Source of the DNA: Microgenomates group bacterium
Lineage (GTDB): Bacteria > Patescibacteriota > Microgenomatia > Daviesbacterales > UBA10151
Direction: 5' to 3'
Length of the DNA: 64,000 nucleotides
NCBI GenBank assembly: GCA_041659805.1
Contig: JBAZXP010000001.1
Coordinates: 64,589-128,588, forward strand
A model generated the notes under the pieces. It was not told where the DNA came from. It searched no databases and was given only the letters and a program-made list of their open reading frames with translations. Within the stretch, counting starts at the first letter, position 1, and the number at the start of each line of letters is the position of its first letter. Both the position numbers and the translations under genes were made by a program. Below are positions 31,012 to 43,802 of the stretch, piece by piece.

Positions 31012-31455
31012 GCTGTCTATTTGTCTATAATTACTTATAGGATCAGACTATACCTTCATCCAAATCGGTATATCAGAAAATCAGAGAATCAGCAGATCAG
31101 AAATATCTGAATCGCCGACTCGCCGAAACACTGACAAACTGAACTGGAGCTAGCCTTTTATTCAAGTTTCCTTCCGGATTATCCGGGACCTTGAATCCCT
31201 CCGATGTTACATCGGAGAAGTCGTTACGGGGCCAAATCCAGAAAATCAGAAGAATCAGAAAATCAGAAGAATCAGAAATTTCACTTTCCGATGTTCCGAT
31301 ATTCAGATTTTCAGATATTCCAAACCTAGTTTCCCTCGGTATTATCCTCACATTACTGTCAGGACTTCACCGATTTTAGCTAGTATTTTTTGTTCAAAAA
31401 GATTTCTAATTGTTATAACAGTGCTACAGAATTACTCCTGCCGCACCCCAATGTT
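31012..31455 (-). mobile_element. ORF-less ~440-bp insertion (putative group I intron or intervening sequence) in 23S rRNA at a position equivalent to E. coli ~2499/2500
   Basis: The conserved GGCACCTC|GATGTCGGCTCATCAC is interrupted here: the exons read GGCACCTC ... [insert] ... GATGTCGGCTC. The insert contains AATCAGAA(G/A) microsatellite repeats and no long ORF. Confidence 0.6.
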
Positions 31456-31981: not shown

Positions 31982-32383
31982 ATTTTAAAACTGTCATTCT
32001 AAAATGAATATACGCACAACTTTACAGTCGTGGTATCTTCTTCTTCAAGCCTTCGGCTTGTAGAATAAATTTTAGAAGTCTTACATTTGTTTTTATGATT
32101 TAATGATTTTTAAATCCTCTACATCGCTATAGAGATCGGACTATATCTTGCCCCGATTGCTCGGGACTCCAACGTGTAGTCTCTGAGGGTTCCCTTACGG
32201 GCCTTCCCTGCTGATTGACTCCACTGATAGATTGTCACTCTTACGAGTACTATCAGATACTGAGTTATTCCAGCATATAGTTGGATTTTCACTACTTAAG
32301 GTTTTTTGCATACTAATCTAGCAATTTTCAACGAATTCCCGAGTGTTGTACATTGCTGTACATTCTAGCAAGTTTGTTTCCGC
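31982..32383 (-). mobile_element. ORF-less ~400-bp AT-rich insertion (putative group I intron or IVS) in 23S rRNA at a position equivalent to E. coli ~1917
   Basis: Exon sequence CCTTGTCTGGTAGGT...[insert]...GGAGTTCAGACCCGCACGAAAGG corresponds to E. coli CCTTGTCGGGTAAGT|TCCGACCTGCACGAATGG. The intervening ~400 nt has no rRNA homology. Confidence 0.55.
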
Positions 32384-39474: not shown

Positions 39475-39638
39475 ATATAAATCCTAACATAATTGTCGAT
39501 GTTAGTGAAAAATGTTATACTTACCCTCAGTTTTGGGCACGTAGTTCACTGGGAAGGCAGAAACTTTGTTTTCTGCCTTGCGATCCCGATTTATCGGGAT
39601 CTAATGAACGCTTTATTGATTTTGAAAGCATTGTAAAA

Positions 39639-39710
39639 GGGCCGGTAGTTCACTGGTAGAACGCTTCACTGATAATGAAGAAGTAGATGGTTCGATTCCA
39701 TCCCGGCCCA
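39639..39710 (+). tRNA. tRNA-Ile (anticodon GAT)
   Basis: GGGCCGGTAGTTCACTGGTAGAACGCTTCACTGATAATGAAGAAGTAGATGGTTCGATTCCATCCCGGCCCA folds as a cloverleaf: acceptor GGGCCGG/CCGGCCC, anticodon stem CTTCA/TGAAG, loop CTGATAA. Confidence 0.8.
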
Positions 39711-39756
39711 CAGATGCTTTCAAAATATCAAAAATTTAGTAAAAAATTTTTGAATA

Positions 39757-39797
39757 TAATGAAGAAGTAGATGGTTCGATTCCATCCGTGCCCACTT
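39757..39797 (+). repeat. partial direct repeat of the 3' half of tRNA-Ile (att-like scar)
   Basis: ATAATGAAGAAGTAGATGGTTCGATTCCATCC is identical to the tRNA 3' half over 32 nt, then diverges (gtgcccac vs cggcccac). Located 46 bp downstream of the intact tRNA. Confidence 0.7.
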
Positions 39798-41029: not shown

Positions 41030-41419
41030 GTTTTCATCTTACACTATTTTAAAAAATCCATCAAAAAAACTCCCCGGAGGGAGCTTAAGAAAGACTATAG
41101 TCTTGAGCGAGTCAAGACGAGTCGAAAGATTTAATTCCAAAAAAGTGGTGGGGAGGGTTTTTAAAGAAGCCCTCAACTTCTATCACCATTTACCCTGAAT
41201 TTTGTTCAGAATAGCGTGAAGGTGATCTTGGATCAAACCATGGCTATCATCTCTTGCGAGTTTAATGAAATCCTCCAGCTTGACCTAATCTCCAGAAAGG
41301 AGGTGATCCATCCCCAGCTTCGGCTAGGGATACCTTGTTACGACTTAAGCTTCATCGCTGGTTTCACCTTCCTCCGTAATCACGGAGTTCGGGTGCCCCC
41401 AACTTTGCTGCCTTGACGG

Positions 41420-42292
41420 ATTGGAATAACTTAAGGTTGTTTTCCGTTCCCACCCGGCGAGCCGATTTCCGGCACCGGGCGAGCCCTAATGATGCATTAA
41501 TGCTTTTAAATTTCGAATCTTAGTTTCTCCCTCTAAAGTAAAGTGTTCTTTTTTAATGATCATTTTTGAAACTTGAGAAAAAATCTCAAAATCTCTTTTC
41601 TTCTTGGGACTAAGGAGTTGATGCTTATCAAAAAAATCAATCAATTTTAACTTATCTTCGTTCGAGTTTACCTCAAAACGATAACAAGATTGGTGATTTT
41701 TTCTCTTCTCTTTTTGATAATAAATAAAACCAAATCCTAAGTACTTTTTAATAGTTTCTAAAACTAATAAATCATCTTCACGAAGTTTTATATAAAAATG
41801 AGACTTCGCCATAATGTGTGCTTTTGGGTTTTTTGTTTTATCCCTCTCTGTTAAAAGAATATAAAAACATCCTTCTCCATCACTAAGACCAACTATATAG
41901 CTTGCATCTATCATTAGGTAGTTCCCTTCATCACCGCAGCGTAGTATTTTCAGTATAAACTGAACCTAAAACACTGTCAATAACTACTATGAAACTGCTG
42001 ACTTCCTACCAAGCAATTACCTTCTTCTTAGTAGGATCTCCATGGGTTATATATATCACTGTTCCAAACATTCCATTAAAGTTCTTAGACTAATTTGTTA
42101 AGTTTCTCTCAAACCGCCCGATGAGATCACTTATTAAAAGAACTCTTTTTAAAAATGGACTGTTTTTTGTCTCAGGCCCTCCAGCTAAATCAATTACTCA
42201 ATCTAGCCTGCCAATTTTTTTTGACTATCCACCATTGGTGGAGTAGGATTTTAACCTACTAGTTATATATACTGCCACGCGCGCATAAATTT
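41420..42292 (-). mobile_element. insertion (putative group I intron) in 16S rRNA at ~E. coli 1402/1403, carrying a LAGLIDADG homing endonuclease gene
   Basis: Exon junction reconstructs ...CTTGTACACACCGC|CCGTCAAGG... The interrupting ~870 nt contains ORF 41486..41914 in the same orientation as the rRNA. Confidence 0.65.
41486..41914 (-). CDS. single-motif LAGLIDADG homing endonuclease encoded inside the 16S insertion
   Basis: MIDASYIVGLSDGEGCFYIL is the LAGLIDADG motif (GFxDGEGCF type). 142 aa, typical of the I-CreI-like family. Confidence 0.75.
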   Translation of the reverse strand: MIDASYIVGLSDGEGCFYILLTERDKTKNPKAHIMAKSHFYIKLREDDLLVLETIKKYLGFGFIYYQKEKRKNHQSCYRFEVNSNEDKLKLIDFFDKHQLLSPKKKRDFEIFSQVSKMIIKKEHFTLEGETKIRNLKALMHH

Positions 42293-43576
42293 GCGGTGTG
42301 TACAAGAGGCGAGAACGTATTCACCGCGACCTGCTGATTCGCGATTACTAGCAATTCCGACTTCATGAGGTCGAATTTCAGACCTCAATCTGAACTGGGG
42401 CGAAATTTGAGAGATTAGCTTGCCGTTACCGACTTGCAACTCGTTGTTTTTCGCCATTGTAGGGTGTGTGTAGCCCAGGGTGTAAGAGCCGTGCTGACTT
42501 GACGTCATCCGCGCCTTCCTCCCCTCAAAGAGGGGCAGTTCCGCATGAATTATTTAACATACGGTGCGGGTTGCGCTCGTTATCCGACTTAACGGTACAG
42601 CTCACGCCACGAGCTGACGACAGCCATGCAGCATCTGTGCTAGTCTCCTTGCGGATTTTCCCAGTTTCTTGGGAATAGAACTCTAGCATGTCAAACCCTG
42701 GTGAGGTTTTTCGCTTTGTCTCGAATTAAACCACACGCTCCACTGCTTGTGCGCCTCCCCGTCAATTCCTTTGAGTTTTAAACTTGCGTTCGTACTCCCC
42801 AGGCGCTCTGCTTAACGCGTTAGCTTCGACACTGATCCGAAAGGACCAATATCTAGCAGAGATCGTTTACGGCTTGGACTACGCAGGTCTCTAATCTGCT
42901 TCGCTCCCCAAGCTTTCGTGCCTAAGCGTCAAGAATACACCAGATGTCTGACTACTCCTTCGGCGTTCCCGATCATATCAACACATTTCACTGCTCCATG
43001 ATCAGTTCCAACATCCTATTGTATCTTCCAGGCCGATCATATTTTGCCCGAAACCGTGGTTGAGCCACGGGCTTTCAAGCAAAATGCATCGGTCCGCCTA
43101 CGCAACACTTTACGCCCAATAAATCCGGATAACGCTTGCACCCTACGTATTACCGAGGCTTCTGGCACGTAGTTAGCAGGTGCTTATTCTTGTGGTACCG
43201 TCATAATCTTCCCACATAAAAGGAGTTTACAACCCGAGGGCCTTCAATCCTCCACGCGGCGTCGCTCGATCAGGCTTTCGCCCATTGTCGAATATTCCCA
43301 GTTGCTGCCACCCGTAGGTGTATGGGCCGTTCTCAGTCCCATTGTGGCTGACCATCCTCTCAGACCAGCTATCCGTCGTCGCCTTGGTAGGCCATTACCC
43401 CACCAACAAGCTGATAGAACGCGGGCTAATCTCAAAGCGCATTGCTGCTTTACTCTTACGAGCACATGGGAGATTACCCAACCTTTCGGCTGGCTATATC
43501 CCACTTCGAGGTATATTCCCACGCATTACTCACCCGTCCGCCGGTTATCTTGCGATCCCCTTGACTTGCATGCTTA

Positions 43577-43619
<43 letters not shown>

Positions 43620-43802
43620 AATAAAAGTGAATTTGTATCCAGCTCCACTAATAAATCAATGAAGCTTTCAACAAGCTTCACTCAAAGAATTGACAAAAGA
43701 TTATCTCAATAAATTGAGATTGCACTCTTGTTTATCGATTTACCTAGACTTGGTAAATCATTTTCCCACCACTTTTCCGGAATTAAACGCCTAAAAAGGC
43801 AT

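Follow-up and report, generated by a model that had tools for sequence, protein, structure and literature searches.

A probable LAGLIDADG-encoding group II intron of compact, class IIC-like type between C1402 and C1403 of the 16S rRNA gene of a Microgenomates group bacterium

The window analysed here is a 64-kb stretch (64,000 nucleotides) of contig JBAZXP010000001.1 from a Microgenomates group bacterium, a member of the Candidate Phyla Radiation (CPR), and all coordinates are given as window positions. A single 16S rRNA gene lies within the window, on the minus strand from 43625 down to approximately 41296. It is interrupted at 41420-42292 (minus strand) by an insert of 873 nt that contains an open reading frame (ORF) for a LAGLIDADG protein. 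An earlier note on this DNA, made from the letters alone, had described a 16S gene split near C1402 by roughly 870 nt, and had read the insert as a textbook pairing of an intron with a homing endonuclease, to be checked by a group I covariance search. The insert is very probably a mobile group II intron with a compact, class IIC-like backbone, which encodes a LAGLIDADG protein.

Positions in the rRNA were numbered after E. coli, with the universal primer sites 1392-1406 and 1492-1510 as anchors; their positions we take to be established. The 5' exon (42293-43625, minus strand) corresponds to E. coli positions ~1 to 1402 and was matched by the Rfam SSU_rRNA_bacteria model at 1273 bits. It terminates in ...CTCTTGTACACACCGC at 42293, the equivalent of C1402 (longer read on the minus strand, ...GAATACGTTCTCGCCTCTTGTACACACCGC), and its last 5 nt, ACCGC (42293-42297, minus strand), constitute the putative intron-binding sequence 1 (IBS1). 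The rRNA restarts at 41419 with CCGTCAAGG (C1403; longer read, CCGTCAAGGCAGC...). From there the 3' exon (41296-41419, minus strand) runs through AAGTCGTAACAAGGTA and then GGATCACCTCCTTTCT to the 3' end at approximately 41296 and comprises helices 44 and 45 (h44, h45) and the anti-Shine-Dalgarno sequence. The insert, read from 42292 to 41420, begins with AAATTT (AAATTTATGCGCG) and ends with CCAAT (GTTATTCCAAT). Because zero bases are common to the insert ends and the exons, its boundaries are unambiguous, and the split falls exactly between C1402 and C1403. The Rfam SSU match ends at 42234, since the 3' exon is displaced by the insert. The split described in the earlier note is thereby fixed to the nucleotide.

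The interrupted segment is the P-site/decoding strand of 16S. The earlier note had called this a functionally critical site, and rightly, as a junction in the decoding centre requires precise removal of the insert. Since the insert separates C1402 from C1403 in what is apparently the only 16S gene, every ribosome would need accurate splicing. The intron also destroys the universal primer site 1392-1406 and lengthens the gene, which helps to explain why amplicon surveys miss such organisms.

Three explanations that would remove the need for an intron of this kind were considered at the level of the gene. Metagenome-assembled genomes (MAGs) of CPR bacteria are prone to misassembly around rRNA genes, and a chimera was therefore considered. 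Five contigs (L081-L085), each assembled independently from another sample, had the same junction with the same ORF; of these, L083 is an NCBI MAG and L081 and L082 encode an endonuclease 91% identical to that of the window; an assembly artefact was ruled out on these identical junctions. A dead 16S pseudogene is opposed by the completeness and conservation of the exons, in which the h44 partners and the anti-Shine-Dalgarno sequence are retained, and by the absence of a second 16S gene from the window. An archaeal-type bulge-helix-bulge intron would fit the LAGLIDADG genes that occur in archaeal rRNA introns near 16S position 1391, but co-folding gave no helix between the two junction regions. 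Even taken together, these three explanations are considered extremely improbable.

The ORF (41486-41914, minus strand) is intact and encodes a single-domain protein of 142 aa that begins MIDASYIVGLSDGEGCF... and contains the motif IVGLSDGEG. It scored 65.9 bits against Pfam LAGLIDADG_1 (PF00961; cut-off 23.1), and its best matches in the PDB were half-domains of I-OnuI-type enzymes (E 2e-28). The ORF, its motif and its orientation (both ORF and rRNA on the minus strand) agree with the earlier description. A protein search returned 100 homologues with 40-91% identity and mostly 141-159 aa in length; the few that are named belong to Levybacteria or Patescibacteria. The GL(S/T)DGEG motif is invariant over the 100 homologues (G9, D12, G13, E14 and G15), as are residues Q67, R71, R79 and K137, and for this reason the endonuclease gene looks functional. 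LAGLIDADG proteins with a single domain act as homodimers, and the single domain present here points to a homodimeric enzyme. I-ShaI, a different CPR enzyme that derives from a 23S group I intron, was found to be a homodimer by experiment (PMC11270868).

Relatives of the element are encoded in 401 species-representative genomes, and the best 80 of these 401 loci were fetched. In almost all of the 80 the ORF is located approximately 150 nt upstream of the 16S 3' end. Junctions and exon-binding loops were compared in 69 loci, and the hosts inspected were all CPR bacteria. The insertion lies between A1398 and C1399 in approximately 30 loci and between C1399 and C1400 in approximately 35; L011, L017 and L027 carry it at 1402-1403, with an ambiguity of one base. 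Five loci (L014, L017, L029, L064 and L034) have a degenerate or truncated ORF beside an intact ribozyme, which looks like the usual signature of a homing cycle. The ORF of the window ends just before domain V, and in many relatives its C-terminal tail runs through that domain.

LAGLIDADG genes are usually carried by group I introns. Two such introns interrupt the 23S gene of this window, and among the relatives one is frequent slightly further 3' in 16S, as in L008, L009 and L020. A group I element would self-splice by guanosine attack, with a P1 helix presenting a U·G pair at the 5' splice site. The group I model of Rfam (Intron_gpI, RF00028) was searched with lax filters and gave no match in the insert at E <= 10, whereas the same search recovered both 23S introns. 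These are ORF-less elements at 32117-32376 (58.1 bits, above the gathering score) and 31024-31443 (34.5 bits, E 1e-6), and served as a positive control. The junction bases are also incompatible with this class, since C is the last base of the 5' exon and U that of the insert, where an exon-terminal U and an omega-G are required, and the structures that covary are group II domains V and VI and an exon-binding loop. The covariance search proposed in the earlier note was thus negative for the insert, and a group I intron was rejected as having almost no probability left. The part of the earlier interpretation that stands is an intron-like mobile insertion with a homing endonuclease gene; its textbook group I arrangement does not.

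The group II assignment draws on the 3' end of the insert, where the 66 nt 3' of the stop codon are strongly conserved. The Rfam model for group II domains V and VI (D5-D6; RF00029) had no match in the window, and an alignment and covariance model of D5-D6 were therefore built for this family. Domain V (41450-41482, minus strand) comprises a U·G closing pair, a CGC triad with a G·U wobble, a 9-bp lower helix, a 2-nt bulge (CU), an upper helix and a GAAAU loop. The model tested consisted of 13 pairs plus three basal pairs of domain VI and was applied to 60 non-identical homologues. L013, L018, L027 and L066 were left out of the alignment; they have extra or different sequence in this region, possibly insertions in or near domain V. 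Pairing was found in 98.2% of cells, against 77% for shuffled sequences and 29-46% when the partners were slid. Double-sided changes occurred in 11 of the 16 pairs, with 213 compensatory cells in total. The first three pairs of domain V (C-G, G·U, C-G) were invariant (60/60) and represent the catalytic triad 'CGC'. The same domain V and a domain VI hairpin with a single bulged A were also recovered by an unguided minimum free energy fold of 41420-41488 (z = -4.0), and the covariance model identified one site only within the 64 kb, at 81.8 bits.

Domain VI forms a hairpin at 41423-41445 (minus strand) with the bulged A at 41427, a candidate branch point located 7 nt before the last intron base. 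For the subfamilies with sites 1398 and 1402, the pairs of this hairpin were formed in 26-27 of 27 sequences, and the bulged A was invariant in all 30 (27/27 at site 1398, 3/3 at site 1402). The domain VI of the site-1399 subfamily is different and has two unpaired A's on its 5' strand. The intron ends in AAU (41420-41422, minus strand), which conforms to the group II 'AY' terminus.

Recognition of the exons can be assigned to a hairpin in domain I (42106-42128, minus strand), the putative exon-binding sequence 1 (EBS1). Its loop, CGGGCGGU at 42113-42120, is complementary to ACCGC|CCG, that is, to 16S positions 1398-1405 across the junction; the CCG comprises the first 3 nt of the 3' exon and pairs with the 5' part of the loop. 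Among the relatives the hairpin has the consensus CGAC-stem-loop-stem-GAAG, and the loop is again complementary to the exons around the junction. In 54 of the 69 loci the first complementary base lies exactly 5 nt upstream of the junction, and in 65 it lies 4-7 nt upstream. At site 1398 pairing starts from 1394 with the loop GGUGUGU, or GGUGAGU where the exon has U1396; at site 1399 it starts from 1395 with the loop ..GGCGGUGAG; at site 1402 it starts from 1398 with the window's own loop. The loop follows the A1396U polymorphism of the exon (GUGUGU vs GUGAGU) in addition to the insertion point, and its pairing extends 3-7 nt into the 3' exon. It behaves as would be expected of an EBS1/IBS1 pairing combined with a delta- or EBS3-like contact. 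Such nucleotide-exact co-variation of an exon-binding loop with three insertion points amounts to a natural experiment on target change in group II introns.

Upstream of the ORF, the remaining domains could be delineated by covariation and by motif. Domain I (42040-42279, minus strand) is closed by a basal stem of CGUGG (42275-42279) and CCAUG (42041-42045), encloses several internal helices and includes the conserved stretch GGAGGGCCUGAGAC at 42169-42182 (minus strand). RNAalifold applied to the 5' part of 25 homologues gave 64 pairs in domains I and II, 48 of them with compensatory changes. Domain II is a hairpin at 42005-42035 (minus strand; CCUACUAAG ... CUUGGUAGG), in which alignment columns 328-334 pair with columns 361-367 and double changes were seen in 10-16 of the 25 sequences per pair. 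The segment at 41924-42003 (minus strand) comprises J2/3 and the domain III core, with AGUCAGCAG, CAUAGUAG and GAAGGG, and leads to domain IV. The evidence for domain III consists of motif conservation and an alignment to the Rfam model group-II-D1D4-1, which in the window follows the consensus AGAAgUCAGCAG..CAUAGUA..GAAGG; the relative L058 reaches the gathering score of this model with 35.5 bits. The ORF is located between domains III and V, i.e. in domain IV, and without it the ribozyme has approximately 441 nt. A search for a second exon-binding sequence (EBS2) found none in the window; the matches in the relatives were all rich in G·U and located in stems or GNRA loops, and none was credible. 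The backbone was classed as IIC-like on account of its CGC triad, its compactness and the lack of an EBS2.

The 5' end departs from the group II pattern. A 5' terminal linker, AAAUUU (42287-42292, minus strand), stands between the 5' splice site and AUGCG (42282-42286, minus strand), the positional equivalent of the group II motif GUGYG. The canonical GUGCG occurs at the same alignment column in L039 and L069. A linker was present in all 69 loci, mostly of 6-8 nt and up to approximately 30 nt with a hairpin in L001, L002, L005, L007 and L034. A 5' splice site at AUGCG, with the 6-nt leader kept in the rRNA, was ruled out by EBS1 pairing at the homology-defined junction in all site classes, and is also contradicted by a leader length that varies from 6 to 30 nt. 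As the loop tracks the junction, the 5' splice site was placed at the boundary of rRNA homology. Pairing of the leader with domain VI, inspected by eye, was inconsistent between the window and its relatives. Linkers of this kind have been documented for rRNA group II introns with a LAGLIDADG homing endonuclease (LHE) (PMC13190283, PMC4424553). The linker lowers canonical group II membership, and leaves membership in the rRNA group II-LHE subset intact.

Several points weigh against the group II assignment or against parts of it. Beside the lack of an RF00029 match, the Rfam group-II-D1D4-1 model aligned to 41923-42040 of the window at 19.9 bits (E 0.44), below its gathering score of 35. The motif GUGYG has no position at the 5' junction, where a degenerate AUGCG follows the 6-nt linker, and the 3-7 nt of 3'-exon pairing exceed a classical delta-delta' or EBS3 contact. 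The resemblance to class IIC draws on the CGC triad, compactness, the lack of an EBS2 and a presumed likeness to the Oceanobacillus iheyensis intron sequence. No homing endonuclease of the 16S site has been characterised, I-ShaI (PMC11270868) being derived from 23S. We infer splicing and exon ligation of the window intron from structure and conservation. Against these points stand the observed anatomy, the covariation, the co-variation of EBS1 with the insertion site and the spread of the family across the CPR. On this evidence the intron is probably self-splicing, and the efficient splicing demanded by the earlier note is a reasonable expectation for a conserved, covarying ribozyme.

The non-canonical 5' end also bears on a further explanation, in which the insert is an intervening sequence cut out by host RNases (e.g. 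RNase III) and the rRNA is not religated. The 3' piece of ~125 nt would then be held by pairing, and the ribozyme-like RNA would be a relic or serve the endonuclease gene only. Fragmenting intervening sequences exist in bacterial rRNA and have been proposed for some CPR insertions (PMC11270868), and exon ligation in the present gene is deduced rather than observed. However, no terminal stem beyond chance was found, the duplex of the first and last 60 nt having -21.4 kcal/mol against -20.8 +/- 4.1 for shuffled sequences. Purifying selection with compensatory changes has kept domains V, VI, I and II across approximately 70 divergent hosts. The exon-binding loop tracks the exact junction including its 3'-exon side, which is expected of a ligation-competent ribozyme and needless for excision, and a break between C1402 and C1403 would sever the decoding-centre strand. 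An intervening sequence was accordingly judged unlikely, and the mobile group II intron is retained as the preferred interpretation.

For such an intron the following course may be proposed. The pre-16S rRNA would fold into domains I-VI, and the EBS1 loop (3'-UGGCG-5') would pair with the last five exon bases, ACCGC (1398-1402), while neighbouring loop bases would pair with CCG of the 3' exon (1403-1405). Both exons would thereby be held at the domain V active site. The 5' splice site would be defined by the end of the IBS1 helix and cut upstream of the 6-nt linker, with the bulged A of domain VI (branching) or water as the nucleophile. Exon ligation would then restore ...ACACCGC-CCGUCA..., the decoding-centre strand. 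The single-domain LAGLIDADG protein would be produced from domain IV, presumably as a homodimer, and by analogy with known endonucleases it may cut intron-less 16S alleles around 1398-1403, with the intron copied in during repair (homing). Presumed cleavage targets in an intron-less 16S gene are CTTGTACACACCGCCCGTCAAGG and CTCTTGTACACACCGCCCGTCAAGGCAGC. The pseudo-palindromy of the presumed 22-bp target, as judged by eye, is limited to the outer CTTG/CAAG arms (4/11 positions) and is uninformative.

The insertion point of the window differs from that of its nearest relatives. The window endonuclease is 78-82% identical to those of L001-L008, and in a neighbour-joining tree it is nested in the L001-L008 clade, all other members of which are inserted at 1398|1399. 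The intron is colinear with these relatives, with equal linker length and equal distance from domain VI to the end. The hosts are distant, the 16S 5' exons of the window and of L008 being only 79% identical. The shift amounts to 4 nt: in the window CCGC precedes the intron, in the relatives it follows, and EBS1 reads GGGCGGU in the former and GGUGUGU in the latter. By this comparison the window lineage appears to have displaced the whole element, from the linker to AAU, by exactly 4 nt, with a change in EBS1 to match. Insertions at 1402-1403 also occur on at least two separate branches of the tree (L011/L017 and L027), and sites 1398 and 1399 are interleaved in another clade; junction shifts are therefore recurrent in this intron family, all within 6 nt of the decoding strand.

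A tentative explanation of the shift, to which we attach a low probability, is that 1398|1399 and 1402|1403 are the staggered nicks of one LAGLIDADG cut with a 4-nt CCGC overhang. Re-insertion would have taken place at the break made by the endonuclease, or an EBS1 variant would have reverse-spliced, and the 5' linker would let the splice site slide without killing a single-copy rRNA gene. As pure speculation, the shift of 4 nt equals the stagger of LAGLIDADG cuts, and intermediates might be buffered by the tolerated 5' linker.

Two further observations were made on the relatives. Many of them (L003, L006, L007, L008, L009 and L020) have a second insertion approximately 95 nt downstream of the group II intron, in the 16S 3' exon after AAGTCGT (~E. 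coli 1498); in L008, L009 and L020 this is a group I intron (54-65 bits), and it is without counterpart in the window. Contigs of intron-bearing CPR bacteria are often titled 'uncultured Gammaproteobacteria' or 'Candidatus Saccharibacteria' in third-party assemblies, while their 16S flanks are CPR-like, and the taxonomy of such records is unreliable.

The rRNA genes of the window are unlinked, with protein genes intervening. The 23S gene (34429-30629, minus strand) measures ~3.8 kb against 2.9 kb for the model, and has approximately 200 nt of further extra sequence beyond its two group I introns. The 5S gene is located at 27747-27631 (minus strand). The gap between 16S and 23S is approximately 6.9 kb and contains protein genes on both strands, including phosphoglycerate kinase; that between 23S and 5S is approximately 2.9 kb. 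Genes for tRNA-Ile and tRNA-Cys are encoded on the opposite strand to the rRNAs, and only tRNA-Ala precedes 23S. The tRNA-Ile(GAU) gene is intact, and on either side of it lies one end of another tRNA-Ile-like gene (39535-39552, 39639-39711 and 39756-39795, plus strand). The 5' piece is GGGCACGTAGTTCACTGG, matched by CGTGCCC of the 3' piece; the latter is a 40-nt copy, 95% identical, that reaches from the anticodon loop to the acceptor end. The middle of this gene has apparently been replaced by approximately 200 nt that contain a fresh copy, possibly as a relic of integration or gene conversion. A second LAGLIDADG gene, of the LAGLIDADG_3 type (39869/39938-40663, plus strand; 35 bits, 241-264 aa), stands free of the rRNA genes immediately downstream of tRNA-Cys and recurs in the related contig L083. 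In a survey of CPR genomes, LAGLIDADG_3 genes were reported only within 16S insertions (PMC11270868).

The CPR survey provides the closest comparison for the 16S intron. CPR rRNA genes are rich in insertions (Tsurumaki et al. 2024, J Bacteriol, PMC11270868), and 16IS9 ('position 1400') was the only 16S site with group-II-like insertions; 39 of its 53 insertions encode LAGLIDADG proteins and none (0) a reverse transcriptase (PMC11270868). The window element belongs to this 16IS9 population, and the homologues compared here are the same kind of loci. They have in common a CPR/Microgenomates host, the gene and region, an ORF for a single-domain LAGLIDADG_1 protein, no reverse transcriptase and a weak Rfam group II signal. 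CPR 16S insertions of the 16IS9 kind are said to have been noted first by Brown et al. in 2015. The survey lumped such insertions as 'position 1400' and classed them by Rfam matches only, whereas here the junction was resolved to the nucleotide (1402|1403; most relatives 1398|1399 or 1399|1400) and domains V and VI, EBS1 and the 5' linker were defined.

A second counterpart is the rns-1396 family of group IIC-LHE introns in the 16S genes of Thiomargarita and other Thiotrichaceae, which have a single-motif LHE in domain IV, a 5' linker in all members and no EBS2 (Liu et al. 2026, Genome Biology and Evolution, PMC13190283). The window intron shares with them its place in 16S (~1396-1402), a IIC-type backbone, a single-motif LHE in domain IV, the 5' linker, the missing EBS2 and contacts to both IBS1 and the 3' exon. 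The Thiomargarita 16S introns were reportedly described by Salman et al. (2012, PNAS). The differences are a gammaproteobacterial as opposed to a CPR host and an insertion position reported as 1396; the two were compared by description only. Bacterial group II-LHE introns have been reported only in Thiotrichaceae (Liu et al. 2026, PMC13190283). With relatives in 401 species-level genomes, LAGLIDADG-encoding IIC-like introns are widespread in the CPR and thus extend beyond giant sulfur bacteria.

Fungal and algal mitochondrial rRNA genes also contain group II introns that have a LAGLIDADG ORF and a 5'-terminal insertion (Toor & Zimmerly 2002; Mullineux et al. 2010; Li et al. 2011; reviewed in PMC4424553). 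According to the review, splicing of rRNA group II introns takes place 1-33 nt before GUGYG (Li et al. 2011), and endonuclease activity and self-splicing have been demonstrated for some mitochondrial members (PMC4424553). The likeness consists in an rRNA gene that harbours a group II ribozyme together with a LAGLIDADG gene, upstream splicing, an altered EBS1-IBS1 pairing and the loss of EBS2. The mitochondrial introns differ in having IIB1, IIB2 or IIA1 backbones, mostly two-domain LHEs and an ORF that is sometimes in domain III or I. The branch A is often missing from them, whereas the bulged A is invariant in the subfamily of the window.

The ribozyme itself resembles the class IIC intron of the Oceanobacillus iheyensis type in its CGC triad, its compact size of ~440 nt and its lack of an EBS2. 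The core motifs of the O. iheyensis intron (..CCCGGCA.., GAAGUCAGCAG..CAUAGUA..GAAGG) are presumably similar as well, a likeness that the Rfam D1D4-1 alignment supports only in part. A typical IIC intron encodes a reverse transcriptase, is inserted after terminator hairpins and has an IBS1 of 3-4 nt, whereas the window intron encodes an LHE, lies inside an rRNA gene and has 5 + 3 nt of exon pairing. The combination of a IIC-like ribozyme with a LAGLIDADG gene in domain IV is atypical and has already been described. The present analysis goes slightly beyond the literature consulted in the nucleotide-level anatomy, the loop that tracks three junctions, the lineage displaced by 4 nt and the size of the CPR family, and the window intron joins the CPR 16IS9 class as a structurally annotated example resolved to the nucleotide.

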